Made by a program: the position numbers and the translations under genes. From Candidatus Tectomicrobia bacterium RIFCSPLOWO2_12_FULL_69_37 (GTDB lineage: Bacteria; UBA8248), in the NCBI GenBank assembly GCA_001790955.1, contig MGDP01000220.1, positions 1 through 45,288 on the forward strand: DNA of 45,288 nt, given 5' to 3'. Each line of letters opens with the position of its first letter. Positions within the stretch are counted from its first letter, which is position 1. Positions 34 through 33,242 of this stretch are shown here, piece by piece. The notes beneath the pieces are model-generated. The model was not told the DNA's origin and ran no database searches. It saw only the letters and a list, made by a program, of their open reading frames with translations.

Positions 34-1371
34 ATGCGGGTCCGATTCTGGGGAACGCGCGGCTCCATCGCCAAGCCCGGCCCCTCCACCCTCCGCTACG
101 GCGGGAACACCTCGTGCGTGGAGGTCGAGAGCGCGGACGGCACCCTCCTCGTCCTCGACTGCGGGACGGGCGTCCACGGCCTGGGCCAGCAGCTGGTGAC
201 CACCCGCAAGCCCCCCTTCAAGGGCCACCTCCTGGTCAGCCACTACCACTGGGACCACATCCAGGGCTTCCCCTTCTTCACCCCGCTCTTCATCCCCGGC
301 AACGAATGGCACATCTACGGCCCCGGCGGGATGGACCAGCAGCTCAAGACCATCCTCGCGGGGCAGATGACCTACAGCTACTTCCCCATCACGCTCGAGG
401 AGTTCGGCTCCTCGGTCCACTACCACAACCTGGGCGAGGGCTCCTTCGACATCGGGAACGTCCGCCTCACCACCCAGTACACCAACCACCCGGCCCTCAC
501 CCTCGCCTTCCGGATCGAGGCGGGCGGCGCCGTCTTCGTCTACGTCCCCGACCACGAGCCGAACTCCCTCTTCCCGCTCGACAGCAAGCCCGGTTCGCTC
601 CCCCTCCACGTCCAGGACCGCCGCCACGTGGAGTTCCTGAAGGGGGCGGACTTCCTCGTCCACGACGCCCAGTACACCCTCGCGGAGTATCCCGCGAAGG
701 TGAGCTGGGGGCACTCCCCCTACGAGAAGAGCGTGGAGTACGCCCTCGCGGGCGGGGCGAAGCGGCTCGCCTTCTTCCACCACGATCCCCTGCGCACCGA
801 CGAGGACGTCGAGCGCATCGTCCTCTCGGCGCGGGAGAGCGTGCGGAAGACCGGCCGCAAGCTCGACGTCATCGCCGCGGAGGAAGGACTCGAGATCGAG
901 ATCCCCGAGGGCCGGGCGAAGAAGCGCGCCGCCATCAAGGCCTCCTCCTCGGCCTGGCTCGGGGACGACGAGACGAAACCCTCGGGAACCATCCTGGTCG
1001 TGGACGACGACCCCCTCATGGTGCGGCTCGTGGAGAAGTCCCTGGAGGCGGAGAACGCCATGCGCCTCGTGACCGTCCACGACGGGGAGGCGGCGCTCAA
1101 GGCGGCGATGAAGGAGCGGCCCGCCCTCATCATCCTGGACTGGGGGCTCCCGAAGCTGGACGGGATCGAGGTGTGCCGGACCCTCCGCAAGGACAAGGAC
1201 TCTCTCTTCCGGAAAATCCCCATCCTGATGGTCACGGGCAAGCGGCTGGACGAGAAGGACATCCAGAAGTGCTTCGACGCGGGCGCCTCCGACTACCTCA
1301 CCAAGAAATTCTCCCCCACCCAGCTCCGCTCCCGGGTGCGGAGCTGGCTCCTGCGAAGCGCGGCCGGCTGA
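34..1371 (+). CDS. MBL-fold metallo-hydrolase with C-terminal response-regulator receiver (REC) domain
   Basis: N-terminus FWGTRGSI...GGNTSC, LDCGTG, HxHxDH motif (HYHWDH), GHS and FHHDP. C-terminal REC: ILVVDDD, IILD (phospho-acceptor), VTG, AGASDYLTK. Confidence 0.9.
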   Translation: MRVRFWGTRGSIAKPGPSTLRYGGNTSCVEVESADGTLLVLDCGTGVHGLGQQLVTTRKPPFKGHLLVSHYHWDHIQGFPFFTPLFIPGNEWHIYGPGGMDQQLKTILAGQMTYSYFPITLEEFGSSVHYHNLGEGSFDIGNVRLTTQYTNHPALTLAFRIEAGGAVFVYVPDHEPNSLFPLDSKPGSLPLHVQDRRHVEFLKGADFLVHDAQYTLAEYPAKVSWGHSPYEKSVEYALAGGAKRLAFFHHDPLRTDEDVERIVLSARESVRKTGRKLDVIAAEEGLEIEIPEGRAKKRAAIKASSSAWLGDDETKPSGTILVVDDDPLMVRLVEKSLEAENAMRLVTVHDGEAALKAAMKERPALIILDWGLPKLDGIEVCRTLRKDKDSLFRKIPILMVTGKRLDEKDIQKCFDAGASDYLTKKFSPTQLRSRVRSWLLRSAAG

Positions 1372-1415: not shown

Positions 1416-1470
1416 CCGTGGGGCGAGGCATGACTTCGGCGAGCTCAGTTGAGCCGCCTCGCCCCTGCGG
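1416..1470. repeat. REP-like palindrome interrupted by a 24-bp insert (1433-1456)
   Basis: ggggcgaggcatg[acttcggcgagctcagttgagccg]cctcgcccc; removing the insert restores a perfect 22-bp palindrome. Confidence 0.8.
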
Positions 1471-1580: not shown

Positions 1581-2366
1581 TCATCGGGCCGGGGAATTCA
1601 CCCCCCCCTCCTCCGCCCGCCGGCAGAGGCCCTCGACGGTCCCGGTCAGGCGCCGGATGTCGCCGGGCGAGGAGAGGCGGTGGTCGCCCCCCTTCACGAG
1701 GGTGAGCTCCACGTCCGCCCCCTCCAGGCAGCCGCACAGGCGCAGGGCCACCTCCCAGGGCACGTCCGCGTCCGCCATCCCGTGGATGAGCCGCACCGGG
1801 CACCGCACCCCGATGGGGCCCCGCAGGAGAAGGTGAGCCCGCCCCTCCTCGATGAGGCGGCAGGTGATGGGGCAGGGCTCCGCCCCGTAGGCCGAGGGGC
1901 GGAGCAAGGAACCCTCCTCCATGAGCCTGCGGCGGCTCTCCTCCGTGAGCCGCCCCCAGATGAGCTCCTCAGTGAAGTCCGGCGCCGCCGCCACCCCCAC
2001 CAGCCCCCGCACCCGCGCCGGCCGGGCCAGGGCCGCGAGGAGCATGATCCAGCCCCCCATGCTGGATCCCACCAGCACCTGGGGGCCCTCCGCGGCCTCG
2101 TCCAGCACGCGCAGGGCGTCGGCGAGCCAGCCCCCGATCGTCCCCTCCTCGAAGCGCCCCGAGGACTCCCCGTGCCCCGAGTAGTCGAAGCGCACGAAGG
2201 CGCGCCCCACAGCCCGGCAGTGGGCGTCCAGGGCGGTGGCCTTGGTGCCCGTCATGTCGGAGCGGAAGCCGCCGAGGAAGAGGACCCCCGGCTTCCTCCC
2301 CCCGAGGCGCCGGCAGGCGAGGCGGCCCCCGCCCGGGGCGGCGAGGAAGCGGAGGGCCTCGCTCAC
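1581..2366 (-). CDS. alpha/beta hydrolase (ABHD10-like esterase)
   Basis: GGFRSDMTGTKA, RFDYSGHGES, nucleophile GSSMGG, HGMADADVP and GDHRLS (Ser-Asp-His triad). Confidence 0.9.
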   Translation of the reverse strand: MSEALRFLAAPGGGRLACRRLGGRKPGVLFLGGFRSDMTGTKATALDAHCRAVGRAFVRFDYSGHGESSGRFEEGTIGGWLADALRVLDEAAEGPQVLVGSSMGGWIMLLAALARPARVRGLVGVAAAPDFTEELIWGRLTEESRRRLMEEGSLLRPSAYGAEPCPITCRLIEEGRAHLLLRGPIGVRCPVRLIHGMADADVPWEVALRLCGCLEGADVELTLVKGGDHRLSSPGDIRRLTGTVEGLCRRAEEGGVNSPAR

Positions 2367-15219: not shown

Positions 15220-16124
15220 AGCGCTTCGTGAAAAAGTGGCGGTACCCGCTTTTCCGGACCCTCATGCTGACCGCCTGGGCACTGCTTGCCGGCTTCCCGA
15301 TCTTCTGGATCACCTCGACCTCGTTCAAGCCCGATAACGAATGGCACAAGTGGCCGCCCGTCTACGTCTCCAAGAACGCCACCCTGGACAACTACCGGAT
15401 GGTCTGGCCCATCCATCAGACCGGCTCGATCTTCGTCACCCCGGACCAGAAGGGCCACGGGGTGGCCCACGAGTCGGTCACCGCCAACAAGCCCTGGCAC
15501 GCCCTGAAGAACAGTTTGCTCATCGCCCTCTCCTCGACGGCCATCGCGGTCGCCTTCGGCACCCTGCTGGCCTACGGCGTCTCCCGCTACCGCATTCTCT
15601 CCGACACCCGGATGTTCCAGCTCCTCGTCCTGCGGATGATCCCCCCCATCGTCGTCGCGGCTCCGCTGACGCTCTACTACTCGGTCCTGCAGCTGATGGA
15701 CACCGCGTCCGGCCTCATCGTCGTCTACTTCATCACCTCCCTGCCCTACGCCGTGTGGATGACGAAGAGCTTCATCGACGAGGTGCCGCGGGAGATGGAG
15801 CAGGCCGCCGAGATCCTCGGGGCCTCCCGCTGGCAGACCATCTGGGAGATCATCTTCCCGCTCATCCGCTCGGGCGTGGTGGCCACCTTCCTCTTCATCC
15901 TGATCCTGACCTGGAGCGAGTACCTGCTCTCCTTCATCCTCTCCAAGGTGGACGTGGTGACCCTCCCCGTCCAGCTCAGCAAGTACGAGGGCTCGACCGA
16001 GGGCCGCGTCTACGGCCACCAGGCGGCCCTCGCCGTGGGGATCACCTTCCCCCTCATCATCATCGGGATTTTCATCCGGAAGCACCTGGTCCGCGGGTTC
16101 ACCTTCGGCATGGTGAAGAGGTAG
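15216..16124 (+). CDS. carbohydrate ABC transporter permease (paralogue of 11564-12439)
   Basis: TSFKPDNEW, EMEQAAEILGAS; C-terminus RKHLVRGFTFGMVKR identical to the paralogue. Confidence 0.92.
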   Translation: MKRFVKKWRYPLFRTLMLTAWALLAGFPIFWITSTSFKPDNEWHKWPPVYVSKNATLDNYRMVWPIHQTGSIFVTPDQKGHGVAHESVTANKPWHALKNSLLIALSSTAIAVAFGTLLAYGVSRYRILSDTRMFQLLVLRMIPPIVVAAPLTLYYSVLQLMDTASGLIVVYFITSLPYAVWMTKSFIDEVPREMEQAAEILGASRWQTIWEIIFPLIRSGVVATFLFILILTWSEYLLSFILSKVDVVTLPVQLSKYEGSTEGRVYGHQAALAVGITFPLIIIGIFIRKHLVRGFTFGMVKR

Positions 16125-16129
16125 GCAAG

Positions 16130-17236
16130 ATGACGCTCATCGAAATGAAAGGCCTCCGCAAGGTGTTCGGCCGCAACATCGAGGCGGTCAAGAATCTGGA
16201 CCTGTCCGTCGAGGAGGGCGAGTTCCTCGTCCTCGTCGGGCCCTCGGGCTGCGGCAAGACGACGACCCTCCGCATGATCGCCGGCTTCGAGGAACCCACC
16301 GCCGGCGAGATCTACATCCAAGGCAGGCTCGTCAACGACATCGAGCCCGGCCAGCGCAACCTCGGCATGGTGTTCCAGAACCTCGCGCTTTTCCCTCATA
16401 AGACGGTGGCCGAGAACATCGAGTTCGGCCCCCGCATGAAGAAGGTCGACCCCGAGACCCGCCTCAGGCGCGTGCGCGAGGCCGCCGAGATGGTGAAGAT
16501 CACCCACCTCCTCGACAAGCTGCCCGGCCAGTGCTCGGGCGGCGAGGCCCAGCGCGTGGCCCTCGCCCGCACCCTCGTGACCGACCCCTCGGTCTTCCTC
16601 CTCGACGAGCCCCTCTCGAGCCTGGACGCCAAGCTGCGCCGCGAGATGCGGGCCGAGATCGACCGCCTCCACCAGCGGCTGGGCAAGACCTTCGTCTTCG
16701 TCACCCACGACCAGGAGGAGGCCATGACCCTGGCCGACCGCATCGTCGTCATGAGGGACGGGGTCATCGAGCAGGTGGGCTCGCCCCTCGAAATCTACGG
16801 CGACCCGGTGAGCCACTTCGTGGCCGACTTCTTCGGGAGCCCCTCGATGAACCTCATCCCCGGGACCCTCTCCCAGGAATCGGGCAAGGCGCGGTTCCGG
16901 GCCCCGGGCCTCACGGTGGAGCTCCCCCCTTCCTTCTCCCAGGCCCCCGCGGGGGAAGCGACGCTGGGCTTCCGGCCCGAGCACCTCGCGGTCTCCCAGA
17001 ACGGGGGGATCTTCCGGGGCGAGGTGCGCCTCGTCGAGCCCCTGGGGAAGGACACCCTCCTCTACTTCGACCGCGGGGGCGAGCGGCCCCTCATCGCCGT
17101 CGTCGAGGGCACGCGGACCTTCCGGGAAGGGGACACCCTCGGCGTCTCCGTGAATCCCGACCTCCTCTACCTCTTCGGCGGAGACGGCAAGCGCATCCGC
17201 AGGGGCTCCAAAGGAACCGGCATCCGCCCCGCCTGA
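16130..17236 (+). CDS. ABC transporter ATP-binding protein (MalK/UgpC-like)
   Basis: Walker A GPSGCGKTT, Q-loop MVFQ, signature variant CSGGE, Walker [16 protein letters not shown]-terminal TOBE-like region. Confidence 0.95.
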   Translation: MTLIEMKGLRKVFGRNIEAVKNLDLSVEEGEFLVLVGPSGCGKTTTLRMIAGFEEPTAGEIYIQGRLVNDIEPGQRNLGMVFQNLALFPHKTVAENIEFGPRMKKVDPETRLRRVREAAEMVKITHLLDKLPGQCSGGEAQRVALARTLVTDPSVFLLDEPLSSLDAKLRREMRAEIDRLHQRLGKTFVFVTHDQEEAMTLADRIVVMRDGVIEQVGSPLEIYGDPVSHFVADFFGSPSMNLIPGTLSQESGKARFRAPGLTVELPPSFSQAPAGEATLGFRPEHLAVSQNGGIFRGEVRLVEPLGKDTLLYFDRGGERPLIAVVEGTRTFREGDTLGVSVNPDLLYLFGGDGKRIRRGSKGTGIRPA

Positions 17237-17296
17237 CTTGATCGCCGCCCCAGCGGACGCCATGATCGCGCTCGCCTCCTCCGAGGGACGGACGCG

Positions 17297-18232
17297 ATGC
17301 CAGGCCCCCTGGATCCGATCGAGCGCGAGCTGGCCGCCATCCAGGCCGACCGCGAGAGCGGCTCGGCCCAGCTCGCCGGGCGCGCCCTGGAGCTCCTGGG
17401 CCGGGCCTGCGGCGCGGCCGGCGGCCAGAGCCCGGAGGCCCTCCTCTCCGGGATGGCCGCCCTCGCCCGGCGCATCCGCGCCCTGCGCCCCTCGATGGCA
17501 GCGCCCGGCAACTGGGCCGCCGCCTTCGTGCTCGACCTGCGCGAGCGGCTGGCCTCCTCCCCTCCCTCCCCGCGGGAGGCGGGCCGGGCGGCCGCCGAGG
17601 CCCTCCTGGCCAGGCTGCGCGGCCTCCCCGGGCGGCTGGCCCAGGCGGCGAGGCCCATCCTGGAGGGCAGGCGCGCCCTCCTCACCCTCAGCCGCTCCTC
17701 CAGCGTCGAGGCCGTCCTCCTGCAAGCCGCCCCGGCGGACTGCCTCCTCATCGTCGCCGAGTCCCGCCCCCTGTACGAGGGGCGCACGCTCCTCCGCCGC
17801 CTCATGGAGGCGGGGAGGCCCGTCCGCTGCATCACCGACGCCCAGATCGCCCTCGCCATGGGGGAGGCCGACCTCCTCCTCCTCGGGGCCGACACCGTCT
17901 GCCGCGACGCCGCCGCCGTGAACAAGGCGGGCAGCCGCCTCGCCGCCCTCGCCGCGCGCTCCCTCGGGAAGCCCTGCGCCGTCCTGGCCGACACCTTCAA
18001 GGTGAGCGGGGAGCTCTCCGCCGCCGGCGTCGTCCTGGAAGAAGGGGAGGGCCGGGAGGTCTGGGCGGAAGCGCCCGGGATCTGCCGGAACGTCTACTTC
18101 GAGCCCGTGCCGGCCGATCTCATCACCTTCTTCGTCACCGAAAAGGGCTCCCTCTCCCCGCGGGAGGTGCGCGCGGAGGCCGAGCGCTGGAGGCGCCTGG
18201 CCGGGGAGGCGGACGAGATCGGCTCGCTCTAA
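17297..18232 (+). CDS. eIF-2B alpha/beta/delta family protein (MtnA/ribose-1,5-bisphosphate isomerase-like fold)
   Basis: DRESGS, RPSMAA, TLSRSSSV, VAESRPLYEG, ITDAQ, LGADTV, VNKAGS, ADTFK, NVYFEPVP. Confidence 0.85.
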   Translation: MPGPLDPIERELAAIQADRESGSAQLAGRALELLGRACGAAGGQSPEALLSGMAALARRIRALRPSMAAPGNWAAAFVLDLRERLASSPPSPREAGRAAAEALLARLRGLPGRLAQAARPILEGRRALLTLSRSSSVEAVLLQAAPADCLLIVAESRPLYEGRTLLRRLMEAGRPVRCITDAQIALAMGEADLLLLGADTVCRDAAAVNKAGSRLAALAARSLGKPCAVLADTFKVSGELSAAGVVLEEGEGREVWAEAPGICRNVYFEPVPADLITFFVTEKGSLSPREVRAEAERWRRLAGEADEIGSL

Positions 18233-18255: not shown

Positions 18256-18351
18256 GTAGGGGCGAACCTTGTGTTCGCCCTGGGTGGGCGTCAGCCCGGA
18301 GAGGGCGATGACGGCTCGGCTGAGCTCGCCGAAGTCAAGCATCGCCCCTAC
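18256..18351. repeat. REP/inverted-REP pair (BIME-like); second REP carries the 24-bp insert (18312-18335)
   Basis: gtaggggcgaaccttgtgttcgccc ... gggcgatga[cggctcggctgagctcgccgaagt]caagcatcgcccctac. Confidence 0.8.
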
Positions 18352-23992: not shown

Positions 23993-24012
23993 GCCGGGCG
24001 GCCTGAGAGAAG

Positions 24013-24048
24013 AACGGCCGGGGGCGCGGGCCCCCGGCCGTTTCATTT
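24013..24048 (+). terminator. intrinsic terminator between the convergent DASS and sdhB genes
   Basis: aacggccgggggc-gcgg-gcccccggccgtt followed by tcattt. Confidence 0.7.
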
Positions 24049-24066
24049 CGCGGCGGCGCGGTTCCG

Positions 24067-24813
24067 CTAGGCCTCCAGCACCGAGGCGCGGATGAACTCG
24101 CGGTTCATCTTCGCGATGTGGCTGATGCTGACCTCCTTGGGGCAGACGGCCTCGCACTCGGTGTGGTTGGTGCAGTTGCCGAAGCCCTCGAGGTCCATCT
24201 GGTGCACCATGCCGAGGACGCGCTGGGCCCGCTCGGGATGGCCCTGGGGCAGGTGGGCCAGGTGGGAGACCTTGGCCGCCACGAAGAGCATGGCCGAGCC
24301 GTTCGGGCAGGAGGCCACGCAGGCGCCGCAGCCGATGCAGGCGGCGGCGTCCATGGCCTTCTCCGCGTCGTCCCGGGGGACGGGGAGGGCGTTGGCGTCG
24401 GGGGCGCCACCCGCGTTGGAGGAGACGAAACCGCCCGCGTGGATGACGCGGTCGAAGGCGGTCCGGTCCACCACCAGGTCGCGGACGACGGGGAAGGCCC
24501 TCGATCGCCAGGGCTCGACCGTGATGACGTCGCCGTCCTTGAAGTGGCGCATGTGGAGCTGGCAGGTGGTGGTGGCGCGGCGGCCGCCGTGGGCCAGGCC
24601 GTTGATGACGAGCGAGCACATGCCGCAGATGCCCTCGCGGCAGTCGTGGTCGAAGGCGACGGGCTCCTCGCCCTTGGCGATCAAGCGCTCGTTCACGACG
24701 TCGAGCATCTCGAGGAAGGACATGTCGGGGCTGATGTCCTTCGCCTCGTAGCTGACGAGGCTCCCCCTCTCCTGGGCGTTCCGCTGCCGCCAGATGCGCA
24801 GGGTCAGGTTCAT
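24067..24813 (-). CDS. sdhB: succinate dehydrogenase/fumarate reductase iron-sulfur subunit
   Basis: [10 protein letters not shown]...TTC [2Fe-2S]; [11 protein letters not shown]; [12 protein letters not shown]. Start [10 protein letters not shown] overlaps the sdhA stop. Confidence 0.95.
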
Positions 24814-26726
24814 CACTTGTAGCTCCTCTCGGCAAGATGAACCGTCTCGAACTCGAGAGGCTCCTTCTGGAGGACGGGCTTCTGGCCGGGGCCCTTGTGC
24901 TCCCAGGCGCTCACGAAGCAATAGTCCTTGTCGTTGCGCTTGGCCTCGCCCTCCTCGGTCTGGTACTCGGCCCGGAGGTGGCAGCCGCAGGACTCCTCGC
25001 GGGCGAGGGCGTCGTGGCATATGAGCTCGGCCAGGTCGAGGAAGTCGGCCACCCGGCCGGCCTTTTCGAGCTCGGGGTTGAGCTCCTTGGCGCCGCCCGT
25101 AACCTTGACGTTCTCCCAGAACTCCTCGCGGATGGCCGGGACGATCTCGAGGGCCTTGGTCAGGCCCCCGCGGCTGCGCTCCATGCCGCAGTGCTCCCAC
25201 AAGACCTTGCCCAGCTCGCGGTGGAAGGAGGTCACCGAGCGCTTTCCCTTGACGGAGAGAAGTTTGCGGATGCGCTCCTGGGCCTCCTCCCCGGCCTGCC
25301 GGAACTCGGGGCGGCTCGCGGCGACGGCGCCGTACTTCTGCCCGGCGAGGTAGTTGCTCAGGGTGTAGGGGATGACGAAGTAGCCGTCCGCCAGCCCCTG
25401 CATGAGGGCGCTCGCCCCGAGGCGGTTGGCCCCGTGGTCGGAGAAGTTGGCCTCCCCCAGCACGAACAGGCCGGGGACGTTGCTCATCAGGTCGTAGTCC
25501 ACCCACAGCCCGCCCATGGCGTAGTGGACGGCCGGGTAGATGCGCATGGGCACCTGGTAGGCGTCCTCGCCGGTGATGCGCTCGTACATGTCGAAGAGGT
25601 TGCCGTAGCGCTCGCGGATGACGCCCTCGCCGAGGCGCTTGATGGCGTCCGAGAAGTCGAGATAGACGCCCAGGCCTCCCGGGCCCACTCCCTTCCCCTC
25701 GTCGCACATGCGCTTGGCGGCGCGCGAGGAGACGTCGCGGGCGGCCAGGTTGCCGTAGGCGGGGTAGATCCGCTCGAGGTAGTAGTCGCGGTCCTCCTCG
25801 GGGACCTGCCGGGGGTCCCGCTTGTCCCCCGCCCTCTTGGGCACCCAGATGCGCCCGTCGTTCCGCAGCGACTCGGACATGAGGGTGAGCTTCGACTGGT
25901 GCTCGCCCGTGACGGGGATGCAGGTGGGATGGATCTGGGTGAAGCAGGGGTTGGCGAAGAGCGCCCCCTTGCGGTAGGCGCGGTAGATGGCGGTGACGTT
26001 GTTGCCCATCGCGTTCGTGGAAAGGTAGAACACGGGCGCGTAGCCGCCGGTGGCGAGGACCACGGCGTCGGCGGCGAAGGTCTCGATCGCCCCCGTCACC
26101 AGATCCCGGGTCACGATGCCCTTGGCGTGGCCGTCCACGACGACGAGCTCCTGCATCTCGGTGCGCGGGTGCATCGTGACGGTCTTGGCCGCGATCTGGC
26201 GGCACAACTCCGCGTACACGCCGAGGAGGAGCTGCTGGCCGGTCTGGCCCCGGGCGTAGAAGGTGCGCGACACCTGGGCGCCGCCGAAGGAGCGGTTGGC
26301 GAGCTGGCCGCCGTACTCGCGGGCGAAGGGCACGCCCATGGCGACGCACTGGTCGATGATGGCCGCGCTCAGCTGGGCGAGGCGGTAGACGTTCCCCTCG
26401 CGGGAGCGGAAGTCGCCCCCCTTCATGGTGTCGTAGAAAAGGCGGTAGACGCTGTCGCCGTCGTTCTGGTAGTTCTTCGCGGCGTTGATGCCGCCCTGGG
26501 CCGCGATGCTATGGGCGCGGCGGGGGCTGTCCTGGAAGCAGAAGCAGTCCACCCGGTAGCCCATCTCGCCCAGGGTGGCCGCGGCGGCCCCGCCGGCCAG
26601 GCCCGAACCCACCACGATGACCCGGTAGCGCCGCTTGTTGGCGGGGTTGACCAGCCGCATCTCGTTGCGGCGCTTGTCCCACTTCGACTCGATGGGCCCG
26701 GAGGGGACTTTGGATTCGAGCTTCAT
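24813..26726 (-). CDS. sdhA: succinate dehydrogenase/fumarate reductase flavoprotein subunit
   Basis: [19 protein letters not shown] (covalent FAD His), [33 protein letters not shown]. Confidence 0.96.
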
Positions 26727-33120: not shown

Positions 33121-33242
33121 GTCGGGGGCGAACCTCGCGTCCGCCCGGTCCAGCCGCTGGCGGGAGGGAGCGAATACGGCTCGGCTGAGCCTTCGGCCCG
33201 GGCTCAGGCCGAGGGCTCGCCGAAGTCGAGGTTCGCCCCTAC
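33121..33242. repeat. REP/inverted-REP pair with doubly nested mini-insertions
   Basis: gggggcgaacctcgcgtccgccc ... gcgaata[cggctcggctgag{ccttcggcccgggctcaggccgaggg}ctcgccgaagt]cgaggttcgcccctac. Confidence 0.8.

Follow-up and report, generated by a model that had tools for sequence, protein, structure and literature searches.

The loops of three different REP palindromes in one stretch of Candidatus Tectomicrobia DNA carry copies of the same 24-nt sequence, which raises the question of whether this sequence is a unit that enters hairpins on its own or part of a longer repeat that was copied together with its surroundings. The stretch, called the window here, is the whole 45,288-nt contig C220 of a metagenome-assembled genome (MAG) of 3.30 Mb in 228 contigs, 69.4% G+C and 91.6% completeness, designated G000. 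Our joint reading of the evidence, to which we assign a probability of roughly 0.7, is that the 24-mer is a discrete micro-insertion module without genes of its own, which enters mostly at purine^C (R^C) steps by nick-and-join on single-stranded DNA, with the necessary factor supplied in trans. It would appear to rank among the smallest mobile DNA elements to date.

The module, CGGCTCGRCTGAGCTCGCCGAAGT, was located in the window together with its host REPs as follows.

1420 to 1468, minus strand: host REP 1, GCAGGGGCG-AGG...CATGCCT-CGCCCC on the minus strand, between convergent genes
1433 to 1456, minus strand: 24-nt module copy 1, two mismatches to copy 2
18256 to 18280, plus strand: empty partner REP GTAGGGGCGAAC-CTTGT-GTTCGCCC, forming an inverted doublet with host REP 2
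18303 to 18351, minus strand: host REP 2, GGGCGATGA / CAAGCATCGCCCCTAC; the orthologous REP in the congener G001 lacks exactly 24 nt
18312 to 18335, plus strand: 24-nt module copy 2, the form with G at position 8, also found on independent contigs from runs X3/X4 and X5
33124 to 33146, plus strand: degenerate partner REP of site 3
33166 to 33242, minus strand: host REP 3, GGGAGCGAATA / CGAGGTTCGCCCCTAC
33177 to 33189, plus strand: left arm (13 nt) of split module copy 3
33190 to 33215, minus strand: sister module B (26 nt), nested at CTGAG^CTCG of copy 3, in a composite that recurs in three other REP stems and once truncated
33216 to 33226, plus strand: right arm (11 nt) of split module copy 3

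A preliminary description of this DNA had noted the same 24-bp element in the loops of three different REPs, and all three sites, when re-read, bear this out, copies 1 and 2 matching at 22 of 24 positions. No match to the module appeared in 100 dinucleotide-preserving shuffles of the window. Copy 3 is broken after base 13 by module B, a related 26-nt palindrome in inverted orientation. The three host hairpins have in common a GGGGCG...CGCCCC(TAC/TGC) frame and differ in their inner stems: GGGGCG-AGG/CATGCCT-CGCCCC, GGGCG-ATGA/CAAGCAT-CGCCCC and GAGCG-AATA/CGAGGTT-CGCCCC at sites 1, 2 and 3, respectively. Removal of the 24 nt at site 1 leaves a perfect 22-nt palindrome, as had also been claimed, and the empty core, AGGCATGCCT, is present 19 times in the genome. 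Site 1 is flanked by convergent genes, a response-regulator/metallo-beta-lactamase gene (34 to 1371, plus strand) and an alpha/beta hydrolase gene (1581 to 2366, minus strand). Site 2 is bordered by an IF-2B-family gene and a hydantoinase/oxoprolinase gene, and site 3 lies upstream of a cyclase/FGE-sulfatase gene.

The module itself is an imperfect palindrome built of two inverted arms, each about 12 nt long, that meet at a GAGCTC center; by reading of the sequence, the arms match as inverted repeats at about 10 of 12 positions once two 1-nt indels are allowed for. Sister module B has the same design and is the better palindrome. Folded alone, the 24-mer reaches -2.7 to -4.8 kcal/mol, with z-scores of -0.3 to -1.0 against shuffles; it is weakly structured and folds no more stably than shuffled sequence. 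It contains no GTAG tag, the tag belonging to the host REPs, and no Rfam family reached its gathering score in the window.

A scan of G000 allowing up to four mismatches found 30 copies, and a second census, allowing up to three mismatches and including split copies, gave 33 hits. Twenty-three of the 33 lie in loops of GGGGCG...CGCCCC REPs of at least nine inner-stem classes. An unrelated hairpin family, CCCTCCC...GGGAGGG, houses four, most of them a variant whose right end differs; five are elsewhere and one, on C4, is a chance match, and hairpin loops in all hold 27 of the 32 credible copies. A flanking stem of at least 5 bp accompanies 25 of the 33 hits, compared with 13.5% of 3000 random positions. 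As read from the flanks, the insert in each host is located 5' to the loop's first C when the strand that gives the module as CGGCTC is followed. Short REP hairpins number 185 in G000. Besides AGGCATGCCT, the empty cores include GGTTTCAAACC (14 occurrences), TTCCATGGAA (11), TATTGCAATA (10), ACCGGCCGGT and AACACGAGGTT (8 each), and ATGACAAGCAT and CACGGCCGTG (4 each). Three copies of the module in REPs with a GGTTT stem have three substitutions in common, from which it follows that REPs can be amplified after they have taken up the insert. Partial 8-nt duplications were seen on C40 and C205.

The REP population of G000 shows further variety. The approximately 185 hairpins, GTAG/GCAG-tagged and represented in the window at 1545 to 1565, 18259 to 18280 and 33124 to 33142, keep a constant GGGGCG/CGCCCC frame around inner stems of more than ten compensated classes. 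A second loop insert, 42 nt long and rich in CTTCGG/CCGAAG, occurs in ten REPs of the ACCGG/CCGGT class (C5:5392, C22:483, C30:18456, C51:1027 and 6995, C75:4983, C151:26125, C155:21920, C209:6806 and C210:18930), with a 41-nt variant at C103:22494. Loop inserts of other families, 33 nt and about 40 nt long, occupy AGGCA/TGCCT and AAC/GTT REPs (C10:3039, C47:16141, C8:5840 and C179:24325; C131:16864, C26:10613 and C151:36091), and some of their copies have grown to 124 to 125 nt through nested palindromes. The variant of the 24-nt module with the right end CTCGTCGCAGG is always in a single CCCCCTCCC...GGGAGGGGG hairpin family, on C46, C51, C60, C74, C86, C126 and C201, and C216 has this hairpin in empty form. 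The variant may represent a composite repeat in its own right.

The 16-mer core of the module, with at most one mismatch, was searched in 41 related genomes. It has 21 hits in G000, 33 in G003, 24 in G005 (another genus), 28 in G025 (another family) and 5 each in G002 and G008, while the remaining relatives have 0 to 1, and a reversed control pattern likewise gives 0 to 1. Five G000 sites were compared with congeners. The REP doublet of window site 2 is present in G001 between the same genes, and its right-hand REP there is missing exactly the 24 nt (gatga/caagc); no REP was found at this position in G002, G003 or G008. The G001 counterpart of G000 C3:5280 is an intact empty AGGCATGCCT REP. 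The G002 counterpart of C1:25515 is an empty REP as well, the C1 spacer being rearranged in G001. All three presence/absence sites differ by exactly 24 nt, each joined at N^C with no target duplication. The spacer of window site 1 holds other REPs in G001 and none in G003 or G008, and that of site 3 holds no REP in G001 or G002. At a coding locus, C209:2128, G000 has one copy and G003 has the same copy plus a second nested after its base 8; G001, G005 and G008 have no copy there.

These comparisons, with at least nine classes of host stem that also exist empty, agree with the earlier proposal that the insert entered different REPs independently. The module is a discrete insertion, not a co-duplicated composite. 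Since the core has 1 hit in G001 and 21 in G000, and a precise loss would have a single repeat base at its disposal, gain in the G000 lineage is the parsimonious reading. We infer insertion rather than precise loss at the three sites, with polarity taken from parsimony and copy numbers rather than from a rooted tree.

Exact copies in other genomes define the junctions. C precedes GGCTCG in 128 of 130 such copies and C follows GAAGT in 128 of 130; the position before the first C (-2) is a purine in 112 of 130. The flank logo is weak, roughly C-R^C-C-G, and does not contain a conserved target of 4 to 5 nt of the IS200/IS605 kind. More than 150 copies have identical 24-nt boundaries, with 1 nt of microhomology. 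Direct repeats of at least 6 nt flank 5 of 128 copies, compared with 1.4% of control positions, an enrichment insufficient to indicate a target duplication. The preliminary description had allowed at most 1 bp of junction ambiguity and no target duplication, and both features hold in this larger sample.

Outside the lineage, a flanking stem of at least 6 bp was found for 17.7% of the 130 copies and 2.6% of controls; hairpins are therefore favored about 7-fold and are not required, and about 82% of these copies are not in a clear hairpin. Targeting to hairpin loops, as first proposed, stands as a strong preference in G000 but not as a rule elsewhere. Several copies lie in short tandem repeats, and the module is found inside related modules and inside itself. 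Window site 3 is an A[B]A composite (A being the 24-mer), and the same arrangement occurs in REP stems on C64, C150 and C205, making four different stems, with the truncated composite on C40. In other genomes, A-in-A insertions fall between bases 8 and 9, 13 and 14, or 17 and 18, all purine^C steps. At least 14 of the 117 loci listed are nested, and one locus, L019, is a three-level nest. Position 8 of the module is A in 98 and G in 19 of the 117 copies listed, both forms coexisting within genomes and across phyla. With G at this position, the weak internal stem regains a base pair, a sign that correction templated by the hairpin may have recurred.

The module is equal to eight codons and is open in five of six frames, and the preliminary description had supposed that it could be tolerated in frame within genes. 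Eighty-five fully open frames from 62 loci were examined and 17 had a Pfam hit. In nine cases the alignment to a single Pfam domain crosses the eight extra residues: penicillin amidase (twice), pyruvate kinase, MR_MLE_N, PurH, Lar_N, MacB_PCD, DHHA1 and DnaX. Coding copies use both orientations and several frames; the stop-containing frame is absent among the nine cases, which is not significant at n=9. G000 has one such copy within the linker of a DnaJ-like protein and another where a YacP NYN domain ends. With these and the coding copy shared by G000 and G003, the supposition is borne out.

An exact 23-mer scan, restricted to one genome per species, found at least 117 loci in MAGs of about 15 phyla, as assigned by record titles; small bins may be mis-binned, which affects the phylum labels of such loci. 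By our estimate, the number of chance 23-mer matches expected in about 6x10^11 bases is well under one. The carriers are MAGs of Planctomycetota, Chloroflexota, Nitrospirota, 'Nitrospinota', Verrucomicrobiota, Acidobacteriota, Latescibacterota, Bdellovibrionota, Desulfobacterota, Ignavibacteriales, Omnitrophota, Sumerlaeota, WOR-3 and Methylomirabilis, together with one CPR Komeilibacteria genome and one Promethearchaeota bin. Closed chromosomes or contigs of more than 1 Mb hold several of the copies, and 14 viral contigs carry the element. A consensus that is identical letter for letter across phyla would imply horizontal spread or a conserved enzyme that recognizes it. Searches of the literature by sequence strings, peptide words and keywords found no description of the module, the keywords leading to work on REPs and MITEs and the strings and peptide words to unrelated papers, although sequences given only in figures or supplements would escape such searches.

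Several individual loci deserve mention. L032 and L060, from MAGs labeled Bryobacteraceae and Tepidisphaeraceae, have identical DNA for an IS4/IS5-type transposase gene (DDE_Tnp_1) with the 24-mer in frame; this identity reflects either horizontal transfer of the IS or mis-binning. L121 (a WOR-3 MAG), L030/L079/L126 and L103, from MAGs labeled as other phyla, carry whole REP-plus-insert composites with G000 stems, such as the TATTG/CAATA class; one of these composites has AT-rich flanks.

The sequence itself is not an artefact of assembly. Independent contigs span site 2 without a gap (X3/X4, 2581 nt, and X5, 1092 nt, where X3 and X4 are possibly one data set), and these contigs from other runs, the long-read chromosomes, the diverged copies and the shared orthologous copies together rule this explanation out. 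No variant lacking the insert was seen among the contig matches listed from other runs, contigs being prone to drop rare variants. In four runs, the summed contig depth over 16001 to 17334 and 24005 to 26672 of the window is 10 to 50 times that of neighboring bins; these are probably conserved gene parts common to other organisms, such as the ABC-transporter ATPase at 15341 to 17236.

What might move the module was sought among genes of the genomes that carry it. No PF01797 (Y1_Tnp/RAYT) protein was found in G000, G001, G002, G005, G008 or G025, and G003 has a weak partial hit. G001, at 96% completeness, is also rich in REPs, and PF01797 was found neither there nor in G000. Among Y1_Tnp, TnpB, TopIB, RVT_1, IS110 DEDD and resolvase, no family correlates with copy number in the element-rich genomes, which are 87 to 92% complete MAGs of a kind in which repeats and IS copies are often left unassembled, and no IS110-type gene was found in G000, G003 or G005. 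Scans of G000 for a larger parent element by half-sites gave chance pairs only, with no left-arm...right-arm pair enclosing a gene. At C141:5200-6100 of G000 (L138, 800-1760), both a tRNA-Ser gene and a tRNA-Leu gene precede a palindromic module about 90 nt long and a small GIY-YIG gene, which is intact (80 aa) in one case and truncated in the other; the module flanking these genes is a different palindrome, not the 24-mer. The intact minigene has an 88%-identical copy in G008 only and is missing from the element-rich G003 and G025. It was rejected as a mobilizer, as its presence (G000 and G008) does not track copy number.

The suggested link to RAYT or another Y1 HUH (IS200/IS605-type) transposase, moving the element on single-stranded DNA, does not survive these searches well. 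It has in its favor the lack of a target duplication, the preference for unpaired loop positions and the fact that the hosts are GTAG REPs, RAYT cleavage of REP single strands being reported in the accessible text of PMC3733652. Beyond the results for PF01797, however, TnpB is also absent, the element has neither the GTAG tag nor subterminal hairpins (24 nt being too short for two), and the target is a single C in place of a conserved tetra- or pentanucleotide. We give this mechanism little credence. Enzyme-free copying errors, in which template switching or fold-back at hairpin tips and slipped repeats copy the loop between structured sites, are also unlikely, if less so. Such errors would explain the association of the element with hairpins, tandem repeats and its own copies, the partial 8-nt duplications on C40 and C205, and the A/G difference at position 8, which lies opposite C in the weak internal stem and is what quasi-palindrome correction would yield; no mobilizer gene having been found is in keeping with them too. 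They do not readily produce identical 24-nt boundaries in more than 150 copies with 1 nt of microhomology, clean in-frame insertions into non-repetitive coding DNA in nine Pfam domains, or an identical sequence across phyla.

Two further explanations were weighed. The module could be the footprint, or solo end pair, left after a larger IS with these termini excised or collapsed, as its arms are imperfect inverted repeats and other modules nest exactly between them, at the center. Nesting also occurs off-center, between bases 8 and 9 and between 17 and 18, however, G000 contains no long left-arm...right-arm element, and copies lie in essential genes (dnaX, pyk, purH) where a large insertion would be lethal; this history is very improbable. 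The other is a single ancestral long-loop REP whose stem diversified by compensatory changes, with no independent insertions. Several loop formats do occur in REP families, according to the accessible text of PMC3733652, and the composite does amplify, as the substitutions shared by GGTTT-stem copies indicate. This explanation is nevertheless contradicted by the three orthologous empty sites and by copies of the module within unrelated hairpins, inside coding sequence and across other phyla, and we consider it hardly tenable.

As the copies show, the module is added as an exact 24-nt unit directly 5' to a C, in most cases at a purine^C step, without target duplication. The preferred landing site is an unpaired C, as in the loops of REPs and other palindromes, at R^C steps in the module's own copies and in tandem repeats, with nesting arising where it lands at the dyad or at other R^C steps of those copies. 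The module also persists in frame within protein genes, and a REP that carries it can then be amplified as a REP. Three features, namely that C is needed on one particular strand, that unpaired positions are preferred and that nothing is duplicated, point to nick-and-join on single-stranded DNA; the target would presumably be single-stranded at the time, and the factor would probably be supplied in trans, not encoded by the element. We also put forward, as a tentative and somewhat doubtful extension, that this is the smallest mobile DNA unit so far, that it represents a cross-phylum class of micro-insertions spreading with no transposase encoded by the element or peculiar to a lineage, and that a ubiquitous host enzyme inserts them by nicking single-stranded DNA where an R^C step is unpaired and rejoining it. 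If true, a micro-insertion process would remodel REPs and add eight-residue loops to essential proteins. A letter-identical 24-mer in about 15 phyla, found also in pyruvate kinase, DnaX and PurH, points to a selfish sequence that crosses phyla and edits protein loops.

How REPs, Rickettsia palindromic elements (RPEs) and other palindromic repeats of such small size are mobilized is an old problem. The material here is clean, comprising an exact unit, empty and filled sites, a one-base junction rule, self-nesting and 20-fold differences in copy number within a genus, and the search for the enzyme is therefore directly testable by phylogenetic profiling. For annotation, the module explains recurrent eight-residue inserts and odd long-loop REPs in MAGs.

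Among known systems, REP families with several loop formats, and REPs within genes, are described by Di Nocera et al. (PMC3733652), whose accessible text describes no loop module common to different stems and phyla. Like REP/REPIN elements, which depend on RAYT, the module is small, GC-rich, palindromic, gene-less and multi-copy, and makes no target duplication. Unlike them, it has no GTAG, folds weakly alone, uses REPs as targets and is letter-identical across about 15 phyla, and the element-rich genomes show no Y1 transposase beyond the weak partial hit in G003. Another case of widespread short structured repeats recognized as single strands is that of the NTS/SRM hairpin repeats of Ssn (GIY-YIG) nucleases, where, in the accessible text of the source, Ssn is shown to cut and not to insert (PMC11893778). 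G000 resembles that system in having GIY-YIG minigenes, but the 24-mer does not flank them, and the minigene, found only in G000 and G008, is missing from the element-rich G003 and G025.

Certain insertion sequences also choose REPs. IS1397/ISKpn1 and IS110-family elements target REP loops as full insertion sequences with transposase genes, and the IS3-type elements among REP-targeting sequences make short target duplications. The module has the same preference for REP hairpins, with no gene and no duplication. It resembles MITEs in being non-autonomous, with imperfectly inverted ends and nested insertions, and differs from them in being only 24 nt long, with nothing between its arms, no target duplication and no parent IS in G000, the genome scanned. 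Membership in REP/REPIN, MITEs or IS200/IS605-type PATEs was rejected on their defining features: the tag, RAYT (in the incomplete MAGs searched), the target duplication, the parent IS (in G000), the subterminal hairpins and the 4- to 5-nt target.

The fungal mitochondrial GC clusters, double-hairpin elements and byp elements are tiny, GC-rich palindromes that nest and enter genes, with no known transposase; they are organellar, lineage-specific and longer than 24 nt, and some are bypassed in translation. The module is likewise tiny and palindromic, nests and enters genes, and the frame statistics of its coding copies, as predicted from open frames, would fit ordinary translation. RPEs, about 100 to 150 bp long and confined to one genus, lie in frame within intact protein genes and, like the module, have no known mobilizer. 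The module is similarly palindromic and in frame inside conserved genes, across nine Pfam domains, and unlike RPEs it is 24 nt long, occurs in many phyla and, in G000, resides mainly in hairpin loops. It behaves like a cross between a REP or MITE and an in-frame palindromic element of the Rickettsia type.
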